The position numbers and the translations under genes are program-made. Below the pieces are notes generated by a model. That model saw only the letters and a program-made list of their open reading frames with translations, was not told the origin of the DNA and did no database searches. 35,897 bases of DNA from an archaeon (lineage in GTDB: Archaea; Nanobdellota; Nanobdellia; Pacearchaeales; GW2011-AR1): the NCBI GenBank assembly GCA_030639065.1, contig DAOWDJ010000006.1, positions 1-35,897 of the forward strand, read 5' to 3'. Of this stretch, positions 6,278 through 26,892 are shown piece after piece. Every line of letters starts with the position of its first letter. The first letter of the stretch is position 1.

Positions 6278-6916
6278 TTAAATTTTCTTTACCAACTTGA
6301 AGAGTGCTTCATAAAACTCTTCCATATTATCTCCGTTTTTAGCCGAAATCCCAACAACCTCATATTCTGGGAAAGCACCTTGTATCTTCTTAATATCAGA
6401 CTTTTTTAAATCTATCTTATTCGCAACAACTAATACAGGAATATTTCTAGCAACCAAATTTCCAATAATCGTAATATTCACCTGCGAATACGGATTCATC
6501 GTCGAGTCAATCAGGATAATAACTGCATCCATATCATCCAACCATTTAATAGATTCAATAATTCCTTGCGTTGCTTCCTTGGCTCTATCTTGTGCCGCCT
6601 TTCTTTTTAATCCAAATTTCATAAAATCTTCAAAATCAATCTTCGTCGCAATCCCAGGAGTATCAATTAACTTAAATTCAATCTTTTTTCCATCCCTATC
6701 TAGAACAACTTTTTCCTTAACTTGAATTGTTCTAGTCTCATGTGGCATCTTACTTACCGAGCCTAAATCCTCACCCAACCAATCCTGACAAATCCTATTC
6801 GCCAAACTAGTTTTCCCAGCATTTGGCGAACCATAGAAACCTAGTTTAATTTCTCCCTTCTTCTTAAATACACCAGAGAAAATCCTACGAGCAAAATTCC
6901 TAATTATCTTTATCAT
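6278..6916 (-). CDS. small GTP-binding protein
   Basis: G1 GSPNAGKT, G3 DTPG, G4 NKID and G5 SAK are all present in order. Confidence 0.85.
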   Translation of the reverse strand: MIKIIRNFARRIFSGVFKKKGEIKLGFYGSPNAGKTSLANRICQDWLGEDLGSVSKMPHETRTIQVKEKVVLDRDGKKIEFKLIDTPGIATKIDFEDFMKFGLKRKAAQDRAKEATQGIIESIKWLDDMDAVIILIDSTMNPYSQVNITIIGNLVARNIPVLVVANKIDLKKSDIKKIQGAFPEYEVVGISAKNGDNMEEFYEALFKLVKKI

Positions 6917-7088
6917 AGAAAAAAATCTCCAGATTTTTTTCTCGCAAGGACTTTGTCATTGCATAATACAAATACCTTTTGTTTCAAAATTCTATCTACC
7001 ATAGAAAAAAATCTCCAGATTTTTTTCTCGCAAGGACTTTGTCATTGCATAATACAAATACCTTTTGTTTCAAAATATTACCTATCAT
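6914..7088 (-). repeat. tandem 86-bp promoter-leader repeat, two units
   Basis: Unit starts (cat in the plus-strand text) are at 6914, 7000 and 7086. The units are near identical. The same family occurs at 21782-21978. Confidence 0.9.
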
Positions 7089-9829
7089 TATACTCTTCTT
7101 TGAAATCTAGATTTATTAATCTTTCTCCGCATTTGTTGTCTATTCTTAGTAATAATATTTTTATTATACGCGCCAACAGGCAACGGACCTTTGGCTACAA
7201 CTTTTGCAGCCTGCACATTTCTTGCCTTTCTATTTCTCGAAAATGCTGCAATTTTCTCAATCGGAATAATTTCAACTAAGCCCGTTCTCCTCCCTCTTGA
7301 CTTTCTAATAATATAATTAACTCGCTCACTGGACCAACCCCTCTTCCTCAATATTACGGCAATCCTCGAATCTTTCTTTCCTTGCGCTCTAGCATTCGTT
7401 ACATACATCAGAAGATTATACATTTGCCGACCATCCTTAAATAAATACTTCTCATACTTATGCTTATACCAAACCTGCAAAATAGTATAGATAATCAAAA
7501 CAAATACCAATGCTAGAAATACATAAATAACTGCTTCTGTTACTGGCTTACAATCGCTTCTGCAATTAATTGAATTTTCTCCATACTCCTCTTCACAAAC
7601 TAAATTATAATTACAACTTGTATCTATCGCACTCTCAAGAAGTATAGAACCTAATTTTGGAGAAATAAAAAATGATATTGCTTCCTCATTTTCATAATAA
7701 AATTCAAACGAAACATCCTCTTCGCTGCCCAAGACAATAACTGTTGCATCTCCCGCTTCTTTAGCTCCAACATCATTCTTAAAAAATAACTCACTAAGTG
7801 GCATATTAATTATAAAATAACTCTCCTCATTACTCCTAGAACTAATGTCAAAACTATATGTATTGAAAACTCCATTACTATCTCCATTCCATAAAGAAAT
7901 CAAAAATTCTTTTTTATCAAAACTTACATCAATATTTTCATTCTGCCAAACCAAAATAGGTTCTCTATAATATGTGCTATCTACCTCGCTTTCATCCCCT
8001 CCAGCTATGACAACGGCCTCAACATTAACGTCCTCAGCTTCAGTTATTAGATAAGAGCTATGATAGTCCTCAATATTAATTCTAGTTGGAATGTTTAACG
8101 TATAAAGATACTTAGCTATATCAACAAAATTCTGATCACTAGCAGCACTTTCTTTTGCTTCATCCAATCTATCTAGCTCATCATAAAAGAAAGTAGCATT
8201 GACGATATTTAATAATGCATCTTTATACCAAAAAGTAAAATTACTAAAACTAGAATTAATCTTATTTAAAGCATTTCTCTTAGATACTAGGTTTATATCC
8301 ACAGCCGCCCTAGGGCTAATAGCCTCAATTTCAAAACTTCTTTTAGATGTTAGACCTAGTCCGGCCCCAACTTCAAGATTCAATGTATAGTTACCTAAAT
8401 TTGCATAACTATGCGAAATACTAGGCTCACTTGTCGTGACAACCTTACCATCTCCGAAATCCCATTTATAACTTAATGAACTATTGTCATTAAAATTAAC
8501 TTTAGCATAAAATTGAATAGGCACACCCGCAGGAGGATTTAATGGAGAAACCGAAAAAATCTCTGGCACTAATAAAATTTCCATCACTTTACCAAAAAGT
8601 TCTTCCCCTCCAAGCTTAACAATATAATCCATACTTTTGGAAACACTAAACCCAAGCATCTCTAAATCGAGAACACCATCAAAATTAATCATAACCGAGC
8701 TAACATTTAATTCATAAATACGATCTTCGTCATCACCAAGCTCTCCCCCCTCTTTGTACGCCAAAGCTATGTCAGAAATACTAACATTTTGAGAAACCCC
8801 CGAAAAAACTAAAGGCAAAACACAACCTTCCGAACAATCTTTATCATATCTTTCTTCAATAATTTCATTGGCCATATCAAGCAATTCCTCATTCAAATCA
8901 CCATTATTAAATTCATTCCATTCAAGCCAACTAGAATCAGCATACTTTAAAGATTGAACAAAAATTCCATAATCTTTTACACTTTCTGTCTGACTTGACG
9001 GACCTACAAAGCCACAGTTTTCACCAACACTCTCCTCATAGATATAATAATCTGTATCCCCTGCTGCACTAATACAAACATAATAATCACCAACAGAAGA
9101 ATCTTCATTTATAAAACAACCCTCCTCTCCTAAGCTCGGGTTAAAATCACATGTCCCAAAAGTCCCACCAACGCTATTTTCAGAATAAACACTCATTGTT
9201 AAATCACTCGTTTCATCATTTGATATAGATACATCAGCCCCTACTCTCAATCCCCCACTATTTGGAATATTAATAAGCTCACAATAAAGCGAATCTCCAA
9301 TACGACGATCACCAGTTGTTCTACTAACCTTATCATAACATCCCCAATCTTTAGGTAAAAATGTAGTTGAAAATTCATTGAATTTCCAAAGCTCTTCCTC
9401 AAAAAATTTAATAATCAAAGGCATCCTATAACTTTCGTCAAAATCACTTTCTATACTAAAGCTCAAACCAGTTAAAACAACACTATCTCCATATAGGACA
9501 AATCCAATAGTCTTTTCCCCAGAAGAAGGAACACTAAAAGTCTCACCAGCAATATTTCCCAAAGGTTCATATCCATTCATACAACCAGAAGGGGAACACC
9601 CAAAATCTGCAGAGTTGAATTCCAAAAAATCTATAAGTCCAATCTCATCGTCATTATTAGATTCTATCTTAGCATCATAATCCGCCTCACTAATTGTTAG
9701 GTTAATTTCCCCTTTAATTATCTCAGACGGAAGAGAAATATTGCTAACATTTACATCGTGCACTGTAACCGCGCCCAAAGCAAATTCGCCAAACATACAA
9801 AGTAAAACTAATAACAACCACTTTTTCAT
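7088..9829 (-). CDS. large surface protein: signal peptide, PKD domain, C-terminal TM helix and 125-aa basic cytoplasmic tail
   Basis: Signal peptide MKKWLLLVLLCMFGEFALGA. PKD motif YKWDFGDGKVV...NYTLNLEV. TM helix AVIYVFLALVFVLIIYTILQVWY. SD GGTGAT upstream. Confidence 0.8.
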   Translation of the reverse strand: MKKWLLLVLLCMFGEFALGAVTVHDVNVSNISLPSEIIKGEINLTISEADYDAKIESNNDDEIGLIDFLEFNSADFGCSPSGCMNGYEPLGNIAGETFSVPSSGEKTIGFVLYGDSVVLTGLSFSIESDFDESYRMPLIIKFFEEELWKFNEFSTTFLPKDWGCYDKVSRTTGDRRIGDSLYCELINIPNSGGLRVGADVSISNDETSDLTMSVYSENSVGGTFGTCDFNPSLGEEGCFINEDSSVGDYYVCISAAGDTDYYIYEESVGENCGFVGPSSQTESVKDYGIFVQSLKYADSSWLEWNEFNNGDLNEELLDMANEIIEERYDKDCSEGCVLPLVFSGVSQNVSISDIALAYKEGGELGDDEDRIYELNVSSVMINFDGVLDLEMLGFSVSKSMDYIVKLGGEELFGKVMEILLVPEIFSVSPLNPPAGVPIQFYAKVNFNDNSSLSYKWDFGDGKVVTTSEPSISHSYANLGNYTLNLEVGAGLGLTSKRSFEIEAISPRAAVDINLVSKRNALNKINSSFSNFTFWYKDALLNIVNATFFYDELDRLDEAKESAASDQNFVDIAKYLYTLNIPTRINIEDYHSSYLITEAEDVNVEAVVIAGGDESEVDSTYYREPILVWQNENIDVSFDKKEFLISLWNGDSNGVFNTYSFDISSRSNEESYFIINMPLSELFFKNDVGAKEAGDATVIVLGSEEDVSFEFYYENEEAISFFISPKLGSILLESAIDTSCNYNLVCEEEYGENSINCRSDCKPVTEAVIYVFLALVFVLIIYTILQVWYKHKYEKYLFKDGRQMYNLLMYVTNARAQGKKDSRIAVILRKRGWSSERVNYIIRKSRGRRTGLVEIIPIEKIAAFSRNRKARNVQAAKVVAKGPLPVGAYNKNIITKNRQQMRRKINKSRFQRRV

Positions 9830-17657: not shown

Positions 17658-18974
17658 TTATAACCCTTCGTCAACCTTCCTAATCGCAGTTGGTGCCTCT
17701 CCGCCATGCCAGGTAAATCTCGGTCTAACTCTCATTGGATAAATTCTTTCTGAATTATCATCTAAAATAATTGCCGAACCTTTTAGTCGAGGTAATCCAT
17801 TCAACTTCGAAGAAATACTTGAATGCATATAACTTTGAGTAATGTCATTTAAGGCATCGACATCTAGCTTTGCCGTAACCCTGTGTAAAATAACTATATC
17901 TGACTGAGTCATAGCATCCGTATGAATTTTCCCAGGCTGTTGAGTTGCCATAACCATTGAAACACCTGGCTGTCGCCCCTCTCTCAGTAACTGCACCAAT
18001 GCATCTGTAGATGGAGTTTTCCCAACAGATTCATGAGGCAAAAATTCGTGAGCCTCATCTATAAATATCCAGACCAACGGCATTTCCCTCTTAACTCGAT
18101 ATCTCGCATAATCCGCTCCATGTTGCACAGCCTGAATTTCTTCGTCTTTCCTCGACGCCATTCTCTCATTAAAAATCTTTTTCGAAACTAACCCAATAAT
18201 TAAAGCCCTGACATTAAAAGCTCCAAGTGAAGCATACATAGATAAATCAATCACGGTAGTCTGACCGGCAGAAATCAACTCACGAACCAAGGTTCCTTTT
18301 TCCTCATCAAAAACTTTCCACGTTCTAGCCGCATCAAATAAAGCCGTAGCAGAATTTTTAACTTCTTGTTCAACATTTTCAACACGATTAATTAAACTAT
18401 AAATATCATCGAAACTAAAACCATTCTTAGTCTCCCTCAACTCACTAATCACAGACTCCATTATAACCGCTATCGGATCAGTAAATTTCAACTCAAAAAG
18501 TGTAACCCAATCCGACGGCTCCAACTCCGAAATCTTAATCGCAAATTCCGCATCAATATCTATCCCCTTATCCTTATACTCTTGATAATAACCAAACGGA
18601 GCAAAAACTTTCATCGGAACATTTTTTGCTTTTAGTTCCCATTCATCCAATAAGTCTTCATCTTTAACATTTTTATATTTCATAGTCCAATAAATTCCCA
18701 TCGTATCAAAAATTACCGACGCTATATTCCCCGACTCTTCAAGTCCCAAATCGGACAACGCTTCCGCCATAGTTCCCATTGTATAACTTTTTCCGCTCCC
18801 CCTCTTTCCAGATATCAAAACAACATGACTCCTAGCAACATCCATATAAATCGGATTAGATAAAGAAGTATAATTTCCCATTGTCACAAAACTCTTCCCA
18901 ATAAAAGCCAATCCTCTATTCCCAAACGTTTTCTTATCGCTATCATTCCTCCCAATAATCACATCAAATGGCAT
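17658..18974 (-). CDS. HerA/FtsK-superfamily (DUF87-type) ATPase (start moved to MPFDVIIG)
   Basis: Barrel-like N-terminus (VIIGRNDSD...GLAFIGK). Walker A SGKRGSGKSYTMG. Walker B WIFIDEAHEFLP. Confidence 0.8.
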   Translation of the reverse strand: MPFDVIIGRNDSDKKTFGNRGLAFIGKSFVTMGNYTSLSNPIYMDVARSHVVLISGKRGSGKSYTMGTMAEALSDLGLEESGNIASVIFDTMGIYWTMKYKNVKDEDLLDEWELKAKNVPMKVFAPFGYYQEYKDKGIDIDAEFAIKISELEPSDWVTLFELKFTDPIAVIMESVISELRETKNGFSFDDIYSLINRVENVEQEVKNSATALFDAARTWKVFDEEKGTLVRELISAGQTTVIDLSMYASLGAFNVRALIIGLVSKKIFNERMASRKDEEIQAVQHGADYARYRVKREMPLVWIFIDEAHEFLPHESVGKTPSTDALVQLLREGRQPGVSMVMATQQPGKIHTDAMTQSDIVILHRVTAKLDVDALNDITQSYMHSSISSKLNGLPRLKGSAIILDDNSERIYPMRVRPRFTWHGGEAPTAIRKVDEGL

Positions 18975-19032
18975 AAAATAAAAACAAAACACAAACTAAT
19001 AAACCTTACGTAATTCAAAACTTCCTAGAAGT

Positions 19033-20128: not shown

Positions 20129-21499
20129 CTACACTTTCGGTTGTTTCATATTTAAGACTACAATAAAGATAATATTCACAATAGCTATTCCAACAATACT
20201 CAAAGCTAATAGCGTCGTAATAGTTAACCCCCCCATTCCCAGACCTGCAACATTCATAACTATAAACATCATCATTAGAACTAGAGGCGCTGCAATTAAA
20301 ATAGAAATATAAACATCCATGAAAGTGCCTGCCAAATCTATATACTGCTGTCGTTCTAATCTATAATCTACTAGAAAATTTTCCGCCTTCTTTTCAAGAT
20401 AACTTTTTAATTCGCCACCACTTGAAATATTTGTAGCCAATCCTGAAAATAATTCTGCCAATTTTCTATTTGAAATTCGTACTGCTACATTCTTCAGAGA
20501 AGTCACTAAATCATAACCATAGATATCAACCTGTGCAATTATTTTCCGAATTTCTTTACCAACATTTGGGTACTCATTAGACGCTGCGATAATCTTGAAA
20601 ATTTTTGTAGGTTCAATATTAGAACCTGCAATCGCAGCCATGTAAATTGTTGCGAAAGGTAACTCTTGAGAAATTCTCTTCTGAACAGACTTGGATTCGC
20701 TAGAAGGATACAAATAAAAAAAAGCCATAACCAAACCAGAAAGACCTAAGGGTAAAACAAAATACACCCAATTATTTAGACTAAAAGCCAATAATACTAA
20801 AAAAATTAAAAGTCCAAAAATAAAAGCAACTACCATAGAAGCAATTGCCATAGATAGATAGCTAGATAACAAAAATCGGATATTTGCTTTCTTTAATTCT
20901 TTTGCCAAATTACCAAACTGAGGCACTAACTTATCAGAATATTTCCTAAAAAATTTGTTAGACAATCTTACAAAAGAATTCGGCTTAATACTAGTTGCAT
21001 CAGGAGTTTTCTTTTTTATTTTATTAATCTTACCAATAGCCTCTTTGGACAATTTTAATTTTTTTAAAAACTCTTTTTTATCTTCCTCGTTAACTGTAAC
21101 ATAACTTTTTTCTTTTGTATTGGGTGAAACATAATTCACTCTAGCTGTTGACTTCACAGCTTTATTAGTAGTCTGATTAGGTAATTTTTCCGAACCTGTA
21201 GTTTTACTAGGAGAATTCACTTTCTTCTTATCTGCACTAATTGGCATCTTTTTCAATACGGGTAATTTTTTAGAAGACACACTATCCACAACCTTGTTAG
21301 TCCCAACAGTCGACGGCTTCATTTCTAATAATTTAGGTACACTATCATTCAATAACATCAATTGTTTTTCTAAAGCTTTTAAATTCGAATAGTAAAATCT
21401 TTGATTACGCATATCACCCTGCATCGCTAATTGAACCGATCTCATATTAACAAGAATTTTTTTTTCTTGCTCAAGATTTTTTTTCAGATCTTCAAACAT
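20129..21499 (-). CDS. T2SSF/FlaJ-type platform protein with a ~230-aa K-rich N-terminal extension (start moved to MFEDLKK)
   Basis: C-terminal half: LPFATIYMAAIAGSNIEP...LKNVAVRISNRKLAELFSGLATNISSGGELKSYL, flanked by TM helices. SD GGAGG lies upstream of the ATG at 21499. Confidence 0.72.
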   Translation of the reverse strand: MFEDLKKNLEQEKKILVNMRSVQLAMQGDMRNQRFYYSNLKALEKQLMLLNDSVPKLLEMKPSTVGTNKVVDSVSSKKLPVLKKMPISADKKKVNSPSKTTGSEKLPNQTTNKAVKSTARVNYVSPNTKEKSYVTVNEEDKKEFLKKLKLSKEAIGKINKIKKKTPDATSIKPNSFVRLSNKFFRKYSDKLVPQFGNLAKELKKANIRFLLSSYLSMAIASMVVAFIFGLLIFLVLLAFSLNNWVYFVLPLGLSGLVMAFFYLYPSSESKSVQKRISQELPFATIYMAAIAGSNIEPTKIFKIIAASNEYPNVGKEIRKIIAQVDIYGYDLVTSLKNVAVRISNRKLAELFSGLATNISSGGELKSYLEKKAENFLVDYRLERQQYIDLAGTFMDVYISILIAAPLVLMMMFIVMNVAGLGMGGLTITTLLALSIVGIAIVNIIFIVVLNMKQPKV

Positions 21500-21625
21500 T
21501 TTTCGACCTCCAGATAGAATAAATGTTTCCATGAAACGTGTCATGCGTTACTTCAAACATTTTCCAGCCTCCAAGATGGACAAATGTTTCTATGAAATAT
21601 CTCGCATATTACTTCAAACATTTTG
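21490..21625 (-). repeat. 61-bp tandem duplication of the SD/start region of the platform gene
   Basis: CTTCAAACATTTT occurs at 21490, 21551 and 21612. Each unit carries GGAGG and ATGTTTGAAG in gene sense. Confidence 0.85.
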
Positions 21626-21784
21626 TTCCCCAATATCTTTGCCAATTTGATTATGTAAATCAAAAATGAAAGTCCTCAATTTATTAATTTTATCTGTTTC
21701 TTTGTTTGCAACAACTTTTTCCAATTGCAATACTGCATCACTCATAGAATCCACCAACTGTCCAACAAGTTCAATATCTACCAT
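21614..21784 (-). CDS. small helical protein, 56 aa (start moved to MVDIELVG)
   Basis: The ORF-track N-terminus (21785-21838) reads through the 85-bp repeat. The ATG at 21784 has the repeat-borne SD upstream. Confidence 0.45.
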   Translation of the reverse strand: MVDIELVGQLVDSMSDAVLQLEKVVANKETDKINKLRTFIFDLHNQIGKDIGEQNV

Positions 21785-21978
21785 AGACAAAAATCTCCGA
21801 TTTTTTTCTCGCAAGGACTTTGTCATTGCATAATACAAATAGCTTTTGTTTCAAAATTTTATATACCATAGACAAAAATCTCCGATTTTTTTCTCGCAAG
21901 GACTTCAATCACCAGATTACCTACTGGGTTGTCATTGCATAATACAAATACCTTTTGTTTCAAAATTCTATCTACCAT
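21782..21978 (-). repeat. tandem 85-bp promoter-leader repeat, two units, the distal one with a 24-nt insertion
   Basis: Unit starts are at 21782, 21867 and 21976. The insertion caatcaccagattacctactgggt at about 21906-21929 sits in the loop of the unit hairpin. Confidence 0.9.
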
Positions 21979-22071
21979 CTTTAGATAATAAAAGAAAATA
22001 TCTTTATTAATGTTATCAACACTTAGGTCCACAATTTTTTATTCCCAATTCTAGATTATGCACTCTTAATT

Positions 22072-26499: not shown

Positions 26500-26762
26500 G
26501 TGTAGGTCCAACAAGTTGCTCAAATCCACAACCGGGAGGTTACCAATAATCCTCAGTTCTGCGACCCTTTAAGCATCCAAACCTTAACTTAGAGCTGCTT
26601 CGTTCCCGACCTGACTCGATTCATCAAGGCAAGATCAAAAAGGACAAAACCTCAACGTCAAATCAATAACATCGACAGCTTCATCTCACGCCTTGCCTTG
26701 CAGTCCGCCATAAAGCCCATTTGCGAATAGCGAGGGGCTAGCTCGCCGACCTGACCTACTAA
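26500..26762 (-). ncRNA. signal recognition particle RNA (archaeal 7S RNA)
   Basis: The minus strand reads GUCAGGUCGGGAACGAAGCAGC (plus coordinates 26594-26615). This is the conserved helix-8 motif with a GGAA tetraloop. The 5' GUAGGUC (26753-26759) pairs with the 3' GGACCUAC (26502-26509). It is a GC-rich island in AT-rich DNA and ends in a U-rich tract. Confidence 0.85.
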
Positions 26763-26811: not shown

Positions 26812-26892
26812 GCTCACATCGCATAATGGTATTGCACCGCTCTGCTAAGGCGGACCCTTCGGGGTACCCCGGTTCGATTCCGGGTGTGAGCG
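26812..26892 (+). tRNA. tRNA-Ser(GCU): tRNA-Ser, anticodon GCU, no encoded CCA
   Basis: Acceptor GCTCACA/TGTGAGC. Anticodon stem CCGCT/GGCGG with loop CTGCTAA. Long variable arm CCC-TTCG-GGG. T arm CCCGG-TTCGATT-CCGGG. Discriminator G. Confidence 0.9.

Follow-up and report, generated by a model that had tools for sequence, protein, structure and literature searches.

Tandem Units before the GTPase Gene

The window analysed here is a stretch of 35,897 nucleotides (nt) from an archaeal metagenome-assembled genome (34.5% G+C) of cold-seep sediment, and our subject is a short repeated unit, called here the cassette, which stands immediately before two of its genes. At the first of these places (locus 1), read on the minus strand, the TAA (7090-7088) of a gene for a PKD-domain protein of 913 amino acids (aa) is separated by 171 nt from the ATG (6916-6914) of a GTPase gene, and the entire spacer is taken up by two head-to-tail 86-nt units at 7088-6917. 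The GTPase, whose closest homologues carry the labels Pacearchaeota, Nanoarchaeota, or "archaeon", is followed downstream by homologues of OapB and OapC. The features of locus 1, where each unit contains a short open reading frame (mini-ORF), are the following:

6278-6916, minus strand: gene of the OapA-like GTPase, 212 aa (by homology)
6914-6916, minus strand: GTPase ATG, belonging both to the repeat period and to the duplicated ATGATA
6917-7002, minus strand: proximal unit, identical to the distal one from unit position 13 on
7003-7088, minus strand: distal (promoter-proximal) unit, beginning with ATGATA, a copy of the first 6 nt of the GTPase gene
6944-6962, minus strand: hairpin 1 of the proximal unit (by folding)
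7030-7048, minus strand: hairpin 1 of the distal unit (by folding)
6917-6942, minus strand: hairpin 2 of the proximal unit (by folding), with GGAG at 6927-6930, 10 nt before the GTPase ATG
7003-7028, minus strand: hairpin 2 of the distal unit (by folding), an A-run/U-run stem with GGAG loop and T7 tract
6913-7002, minus strand: proximal mini-ORF, 29 codons, with its stop TGA in an ATGA over the GTPase start
6996-7088, minus strand: distal mini-ORF, 30 codons, whose 5′ ATG lies in a TAATG over the TAA of the PKD gene and whose stop TAG lies in the ATGGTAG of the next unit
7109-7120, minus strand: host TATA box ATTAATAAATCT, within the PKD gene near its 3′ end and 20 nt before the ATG of the distal unit, kept in relatives that have no unit

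Tandem Repeats Finder delimited the repeat at 6914-7076 (period 86, 1.9 copies, 100% matches over 163 nt, score 326), which bears out the 86-bp tandem repeat filling this spacer that an earlier note, made from the letters of the window alone, had described. The smaller parts named there were also found: the hairpin GCAATGAC-AAA-GTCCTTGC in both units (7048-7030 and 6962-6944), a GGAG motif like a Shine-Dalgarno (SD) sequence 10 nt before the next ATG (7016-7013 and 6930-6927), and mini-ORFs of 29-30 codons with TAATG and ATGA overlaps, at 6913-7002 (29 aa) and 6996-7088 (30 aa).

The differences between the two units are confined to their first 12 nt (ATGATAGGTAAT versus ATGGTAGATAGA). Considering that the first 50 nt of the proximal unit equal those of the distal unit at the second locus, the copies of the two loci are mosaics. 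Simple local slippage was discarded as the origin of the tandem, since the 9-nt junction between the units, GTAGATAGA, differs from the product that slippage of the distal unit would give. Unitigs crossing the unit-unit junction (6973-7029 or 6961-7029) were recovered from three cold-seep runs, one of which may be the sample behind the assembly of the window, and their depth was that of the flanks; therefore, the tandem did not arise in assembly.

A Second Pair of Units

A second pair of units (locus 2) was located at 21978-21785 of the minus strand, between the gene of an ATPase of FlaI/PilB type and a 56-aa gene preceding that of a T2SSF platform protein. Its features are as follows:

21614-21784, minus strand: 56-aa gene (MVDIELVGQL...) before which locus 2 stands, with the FlaI/PilB-type ATPase gene on one side and the T2SSF platform gene on the other
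21785-21869, minus strand: proximal unit, the 85-nt variant, with TC-GGAG (from the sequence)
21870-21978, minus strand: distal unit, 109 nt (85 nt plus a nested insert of 24 nt within the hairpin-1 loop), beginning with ATGGTAGATA
21905-21928, minus strand: nested 24-nt insert CCCAGTAGGTAATCTGGTGATTGA in the hairpin-1 loop (from the sequence)
21999-22011, minus strand: host TATA box ATTAATAAAGATA, 20 nt before the ATG of the distal unit, kept in relatives with an empty site

The word ATGGTAGATA, with which the distal unit starts, repeats the opening 10 nt of the 56-aa gene. The nested insert CCCAGTAGGTAATCTGGTGATTGA has two SD-like words GGTGAT(C) and a CCAG/CUGG stem, and its segment CCCAGTAGGTGATCTGGTGATCTAAG recurs in unrelated intergenic regions of two other DPANN assemblies (L003 5350-5380 and L009 3670-3700, both minus strand); the L009 copy sits within a longer hairpin, GTAAGAAAC...GTTTCTTAC. 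This insert may represent another inserted element, still smaller than the cassette, or an RNA motif. A separate 61-nt tandem repeat (21490-21624, 2.2 copies, 78% identity) runs from the end of the 56-aa gene through the start of the T2SSF platform gene and overlaps hairpin motifs.

Empty Sites in Relatives

Homologues of the GTPase (88-93% identical) were traced to contigs having the same gene order, RtcB ... PKD protein, GTPase, OapB, and OapC. In three of these relatives (L024, L028, and L030), locus 1 reads ATTAATAAATCT, about 21 nt, and ATGAT(A/T)AAGATAAT, with no unit and a spacer of 9-56 nt, and in the window it reads ATTAATAAATCT (the TATA box), 20 nt, ATGATA, 172 inserted nt, and ATGATAAAGATAATT (gene start ATGATAAAG). 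The same was observed at locus 2, where three relatives (L032, L033, and L035) have ATTAATAAAGATA, 20 nt, and ATGGTAGAT(G/A)TTGAA with no unit, and the window has ATGGTAGATA, 194 nt, and the gene start (ATGGTAGATATT / ATGGTAGATATTG / ATGGTAGATATTGAA). The inserted DNA is thus flanked by direct duplications, of 6 nt at locus 1 (ATGATA) and 10 nt at locus 2 (ATGGTAGATA). Because the same promoter and start occur without units in relatives, the host promoter and gene start predate the units at both loci.

In about 110 kb from the relatives with empty sites, a covariance model of the family found no copy. In one cold-seep run (X1), a loose end at 7103 corresponded to a co-occurring empty-site allele of locus 1, ...ATTAATAAATCTAGATT-ACACGAAAGTAATA-ATGATAAAAGTAATTA; since this relative has the empty site, the insertion is polymorphic among populations within one sample.

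A Dispersed Family in DPANN Archaea

One scan of species-representative genomes and one of Joint Genome Institute (JGI) metagenomes with core patterns, followed by the covariance-model search, gave 13 distinct copies in total: the four units at the two loci of the window and nine in other DPANN assemblies, all nine in gene sense:

L003: before the aIF5A gene
L005 and L009: before the PCNA gene
L010: before a gene for a DedA-like membrane protein
L012: before a gene for an L30-like protein
L017a: before the SerRS gene
L017b: a diverged copy (53 bits) before the NAC gene
L018: before a gene for a PRC-barrel protein
L015: at a contig end

Gene sense is the orientation of 13 of the 13 copies, and every copy whose 3′ end is available adjoins the gene ATG, with ...TTTTKTCT followed directly by ATG; at the NAC start, the junction of L017b is ...TTTTTCTT followed by ATG. 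The starts of unit and gene share 6-10 nt at six of ten host genes (both loci of the window, L003, L005, L009, and L017a). At SerRS, unit and gene both begin with ATGATAGATA, and the MIDIKLIRENPE start looks like the gene's own N-terminus. From the Sec61-beta stop to the NAC start there are 86 nt, taken up exactly by the decayed copy L017b (L017 712-799, minus strand, the same as L039 11396-11483).

The exact 20-base core pattern gave 14 metagenome hits, ten of them true copies (five distinct loci), and core words were found in salt-lake, cold-seep, vent, marine, sediment, and groundwater metagenomes. The depth of the repeat in the source metagenomes was 5-15 times that of its flanks, and extra flanks were visible, such as ...CCGGAGGTTTTTGTCTATGGACTTTGTTGA. 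Further contigs of the element-bearing genomes contained no copies beyond the known ones, and a scan of viral contigs gave 0 matches to the element. The suspicion that the units might be confined to these two loci and unconserved elsewhere is set aside by the nine copies in other assemblies.

Taken together, the empty orthologous sites and the dispersed copies before unrelated genes make a small mobile regulatory cassette the best supported of the three options that the earlier note had offered, and the units are very probably an inserted element belonging to a dispersed repeat family. The family would consist of small (85-86 nt), noncoding, nonautonomous cassettes of DPANN archaea of Pacearchaeota/Woesearchaeota type, similar to miniature inverted-repeat transposable elements (MITEs).

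The Conserved Core and Its Hairpins

Hairpin 1 (GCAATGAC-AAA-GTCCTTGC) has 7 pairs and a U.C mismatch, with a folding energy of −4.4 kcal/mol. A second, stronger hairpin, AGAAAAAAATCT-GG-AGATTTTTTTCT (−8.3 kcal/mol), which the earlier note had missed, presents the GGAG in its loop and stops one base short of the ATG. Both hairpins are predicted by RNAalifold. In the alignment of ten units, the last 48 nt, with hairpin 1, hairpin 2, and the TCT before the ATG, were near-invariant and read TGCAATGAC-nnn-GTCCTTGCGAGAAAAAAATC(T)GGAGATTTTTKTCTATG; changes are limited to the loops of the two hairpins, to U72, which closes a loop and is missing from the 85-nt variants, to the mismatched position of hairpin 2, and to one base of a hairpin-2 arm in L010. 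The first 40 nt are variable and define two subfamilies. Between the PCNA copies L005 and L009, the core is 91% identical, the 5′ half about 55%, and the PCNA genes themselves 81%.

Variation is concentrated in the hairpin loops. In L017b, hairpin 1 is GCGAUGGC-GCA-GCCCUCGC in place of GCAAUGAC-AAA-GUCCUUGC, with two compensatory A-U to G-C changes and the U.C mismatch kept; in this single sequence, 5 of 500 shuffles did equally well. The compensatory changes support base-pairing, which may take place as RNA or as single-stranded DNA. The fold of the whole unit was not significantly more stable than that of shuffled sequence (z = −1.4), and Rfam gave no match at the gathering score over the window and only chance-level hits (E ≥ 1) in 6850-7150.

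Several structural alternatives were tried and rejected. A long-range helix or inverted termini joining the 5′ end of the unit to its U-rich 3′ end is disfavoured because the 5′ end is no more complementary to this tail (mean −4.5 kcal/mol) than native gene starts are (−4.15). For hairpin 1 as a K-turn, C/D box, or hammerhead, the relevant positions are Watson-Crick paired, also in the diverged copy, and there is no Rfam match. A bulge-helix-bulge intron that would restore a leaderless mRNA was discarded, as no consistent helix was found between the junctions. Origin-recognition boxes, which the adjacent oapABC genes had brought to mind, and a Xer/dif site do not agree with units that also precede unrelated genes, nor does the geometry of arms and spacer fit.

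Promoter Layout and the Mini-ORF

A TATA 8-mer (at least 7 of 8 positions matching) ends 17-27 nt before the start in 17 of 32 genes of the window, and the most frequent distance, that of 11 genes, is 21 nt. Such a spacing of about 21 nt between TATA box and ATG is the layout of a leaderless mRNA, so the genome would be largely of leaderless type; a few internal genes of the window have GGTGAT or GGAGG motifs instead. A TATA-like box is likewise found about 19-24 nt before the unit's own 5′ ATG in every copy with enough upstream sequence, except the decayed L017b, which lacks a canonical TATA box at the usual distance, contrary to the other copies. At locus 1, the promoter conserved in relatives (ATTAATAAATCT) lies upstream of the units and at the usual distance from the unit's 5′ ATG, and the duplicated promoter that the earlier note had listed among its options is therefore not supported as it was worded. 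Starts of the form ATGRTA occur in two of 35 genes of the window, both of them with units; the probability of this by chance is about 1 in 595.

Frame 0 from the 5′ ATG is stop-free through the variable half in 11 of the 11 canonical copies. By chance, this would occur with a probability of 0.2-0.3 per copy and, taken jointly over the seven copies that diverge most, of about 6e-5; most copies have stops in frames 1 and 2. Where a canonical copy is complete, its stop lies 1-11 nt past the real ATG (TGA in ATGA, TAG in ATGGTAG, or, for the 85-nt variants, a stop some codons on); the 1-nt indel in the hairpin-2 loop and the 1-nt shorter 5′ half of L015 alter the frame. The arrangement has what the sequence of a translationally coupled upstream ORF would be expected to have, namely, a 5′ ATG at leaderless TATA distance, an open frame, and a stop near the main ATG. 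On the other hand, the peptide itself is not conserved, judging from the frame shifts, the nonconservative changes in the loops, and the early stop of L017b. The translationally coupled leader peptides proposed in the earlier note find weaker support, through the open frame in all 11 copies and the stop at or just past the ATG, and not as a conserved peptide. A search with the words of the 45-aa mini-ORF translation among 5.8 billion proteins returned no candidates. A −1 frameshift on A-AAA-AAA fusing the mini-ORF to the gene would fit the 86-nt units and was rejected because the 85-nt variants put the gene in another frame.

Proposed Model

Our reading is that a cassette inserts at a start codon and converts a leaderless gene into a leadered, translationally relayed one; for this statement as a whole we estimate a probability of roughly 0.6. 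The host promoter would transcribe AUGRUA-[cassette]n-AUG-gene, starting at the unit's 5′ AUG. This orphaned 5′-terminal AUG would still serve leaderless initiation, and ribosomes would then traverse the stop-free mini-ORF through hairpins 1 and 2, terminate at a UGA or UAG overlapping or lying just past the next AUG, and reinitiate there, aided by the GGAG displayed in the hairpin-2 loop 10 nt upstream. In a tandem pair, two rounds of termination and reinitiation would follow one another, which constitutes the relay. The cassette would in this manner turn a leaderless gene into a leadered, translationally coupled gene without silencing it, and so be tolerated before PCNA, aIF5A, and SerRS. 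Taken separately, this translational relay is a tentative proposal, with a little under an even chance of being correct.

Concerning the insertion itself, integration would probably proceed through the homology of ATGRTA between the 5′ end of the cassette and the target, and arrays could arise because each insertion recreates a target of TATA box, about 20 nt, and ATGRTA. The near-invariant 48 nt at the 3′ end (hairpins 1 and 2 and TCT) may be needed for spread, for restart, or for both. To judge from the variable length of the duplication, the ATGRTA(GATA) common to cassette and target, and the absence of inverted termini, the event may have been a site-specific or homology-guided recombination and not the work of a cut-and-paste transposase of the classical kind. 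A wider claim, that these cassettes represent a new class of mobile element for leaderless genes, one which recognises ATGRTA close to the start of transcription, integrates there by homology with its own 5′ end, regenerates its target and so forms head-to-tail arrays, and carries a relay (open mini-ORF, overlapping stop and start, SD in a loop) that makes insertion before essential genes harmless, is in our opinion somewhat doubtful.

The reading is built on features that the alignments display, that is, strict position and orientation at gene starts of apparently leaderless type, the duplicated start, the empty sites, the constrained 3′ core, and the open 5′ half. A number of observations weigh against it. 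RNA runs were searched for the region and none contained it; we infer from the layout the start of transcription, the read-through of the T5-T7 tracts, and the translation of the mini-ORF. The hexamer between the locus-1 units is ATGGTA and that of the host ATGATA; the duplication varies from 3 to 10 nt across the family, which is atypical for a MITE; and terminal inverted repeats were looked for in the units and not found. The frame of the mini-ORF relative to the gene is not the same in the 86-nt and the 85-nt variants. GGAG is absent in two copies, L005 (TCTATAGA) and L017b (TCTAAAGA), and the mini-ORF of L017b stops at codon 11; since these copies exist, neither GGAG nor the open mini-ORF would seem indispensable. 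The covariation of hairpin 1 comes from one diverged sequence, L017b. Finally, the density is low, with 1-2 copies per 20-30 kb, approximately, fetched around known copies. With so few copies seen in the searched stretches, a core almost identical from lineage to lineage could reflect a function at the level of the host rather than recent mobility.

Alternative Explanations

This last point leads to the view of the unit as a cis-regulatory leader RNA of the host, in which hairpins 1 and 2 would bind a protein or ligand, or the T-run of hairpin 2 would act as a conditional terminator. Such a leader would coregulate housekeeping genes and would have been copied to new genes because it was useful and not because it was selfish. 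It agrees with a 48-nt core that hardly changes between lineages with as little as 81% identity in their PCNA genes, with the compensatory changes and retained U.C mismatch of hairpin 1, with host genes mostly of replication and translation, with a copy number that seems low in the searched stretches, and with the T5-T7 tracts, a known signal of archaeal termination. It is nonetheless unlikely, considering that the element is absent at the orthologous loci of close relatives having the same promoter and that the host genes differ between genomes; moreover, there is no Rfam match even at E up to 10, the fold has a z of only −1.4, and the start-codon duplications and the stop-free 5′ half are left without explanation. 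The latter also tells against a portable promoter with an SD leader. Here, an internal AT-rich box at unit positions 31-38 (TTTGTATT in family A; TTTAAATT or TTTAGATA in family B) would be the TATA box, transcription would begin at about position 60, hairpin 2, GGAG, and AUG would make up a leader of 26 nt, and hairpin 1, lying between TATA box and start site, would be an operator. This box, the one that the earlier note had called TATA-like, is at the same place in all copies, and its distance to position 60 equals the modal 21-nt TATA-to-start spacing of the genome. It matches the TATA consensus at only 6-7 of 8 positions, however, and relatives conserve a stronger host TATA box, placed upstream of the unit's 5′ ATG at canonical spacing; likewise, the two differing versions of hairpin 1 in one genome (L017a and L017b) point to base-pairing and not to a single repressor site. 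We regard a portable promoter as improbable.

A unit that is preceded by a TATA box, contains structured hairpins, and closes with a T5-T7 tract could also be a stand-alone gene for a trans-acting small RNA with its own T-run terminator. But the unit always ends one base-triplet from the gene ATG and in gene sense, its 5′ half is not conserved, and in relatives its place is the gene's own promoter-to-ATG junction, where termination would silence essential genes, so this explanation is very improbable. That the mini-ORF encodes a functional leader peptide (...LCNDKVLARKKSGDF...) is suggested by a frame open in 12 of 13 copies; it is hardly credible given that the copies lack a pattern of synonymous-site variation, the loop changes are nonconservative (K to G, G to I), the 85-nt variants and L015 have a shifted frame, L017b stops early, and no called protein among the 5.8 billion searched shares its words. 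As to an assembly or chance artefact, the window is, it is true, part of a metagenome-assembled genome, and de Bruijn unitigs are interrupted at the repeat. The junction unitigs of three runs at flank depth, the same core in independent assemblies of other studies, and the four occurrences of the hairpin-2 20-mer (at most 3 mismatches; two sites, both strands each), against 0.02 expected, reduce the chance of an artefact to a negligible one.

Comparison with Known Elements

The insertion of a cassette at a start codon was compared with MITEs, Rickettsia palindromic elements (RPEs), and integrative elements. As in a MITE, the units are short (85-86 nt), noncoding, and dispersed (four units at two loci of the window, further metagenome flanks, and nine loci elsewhere), and they show presence/absence with a target-site duplication, with empty sites in three relatives per locus; the terminal inverted repeats of a MITE are missing. 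Archaeal MITEs (Sulfolobus SM1-SM4 and similar) are likewise nonautonomous short repeats in archaeal genomes. Those of Sulfolobus derive from known insertion sequences (IS) with matching inverted termini, whereas for the cassette no partner IS is known and the site specificity is another. No transposase or integrase genes were found in the window when they were looked for.

Small mRNA-borne repeats are well known in bacteria. Correia/NEMIS (Neisseria), ERIC, BOX, and RUP elements are, like the cassette, short, noncoding, dispersed, and structured; they lie in 5′ regions, are cotranscribed, may supply expression signals, and are polymorphic in presence between close relatives. These bacterial elements have terminal inverted repeats, fixed short duplications (e.g., TA), and both orientations, and are not known to target start codons, while the cassette has no inverted termini that we could find, is always in gene sense, and has an ATG-proximal hexamer target with a 3-10 nt duplication that rebuilds the start codon. 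RPEs are also small palindromic repeats tolerated in expressed or essential genes by virtue of an open frame; they are in frame within the coding sequence and become part of the protein, in contrast to the cassette, which stands before the gene, has a frame out of phase, and ends at the start. Integrative elements of tRNA genes (archaeal and bacterial integrases) share the direct repeat that restores the gene end and a target chosen by shared sequence, but they measure kilobases, have their own integrase, and use gene 3′ ends, and the cassette is 86 nt long, geneless, and at the 5′ end, with a variable repeat. Palindrome-associated elements derived from IS200/IS605 and REP/RAYT repeats have imperfect subterminal hairpins, insert 3′ of a short target and do not duplicate it, and lie outside genes, often in either orientation. 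The cassette is like them in its imperfect hairpin with a conserved mismatch and does not otherwise fit, as its left end lacks a corresponding hairpin, its target is duplicated, and the units are always in gene sense at start codons.

Termination-reinitiation at AUGA overlaps is established. With regard to leadered mRNAs that have a 5′-terminal upstream AUG (uAUG; e.g., the E. coli 5′-uAUG study, PMC4965119) or a coupled upstream ORF, the cassette resembles them in the AUG at the very 5′ end, the short ORF, and the stop overlapping the main start. It differs from native uAUG arrangements in that an insertion brings it to the gene complete, and in its tandem repetition. None of the closest analogues is known to have the start-codon target, the obligatory orientation, or the putative relay architecture. 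Our search of the literature found nothing on an element of this type, and no Rfam family matches it. We know of no small repeat that lands on a leaderless start codon and rebuilds it, and of none for DPANN archaea.

Other Features of the Window

The strand asymmetry of the whole window is strong (plus strand, G 12.3% and C 22.2%), which fits the location of most genes on the minus strand and purine-rich coding strands. The minus strand has a signal recognition particle (SRP) RNA at 26503-26758, scored at 61.5 bits with the SRP-clan model for the bacterial large SRP, and the plus strand a tRNA gene at 26812-26892. In the pilus-type cluster, the HerA/DUF87 ATPase at 17658-18992 of the minus strand has 444 aa; the syntenic ATPases of L033 (6662-9280) and L035 (13929-16355) have 808-872 aa and, in precomputed Pfam annotation, an intein with a LAGLIDADG endonuclease, and the difference in size looks like an intein presence/absence polymorphism.

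Biological Meaning

The 48-nt core offers a simple sequence marker for metagenome searches. If the relay is true, a selfish insertion would be made harmless before genes such as PCNA, aIF5A, and SerRS, and these loci would provide a compact natural test of leaderless initiation, of reinitiation, and of how uncultured archaea use SD sequences. A mechanism converting leaderless genes into leadered ones would likewise be documented. Should the cassettes prove to be a class of mobile element for leaderless genes, they would represent a natural route by which such genes become leadered and SD-dependent.

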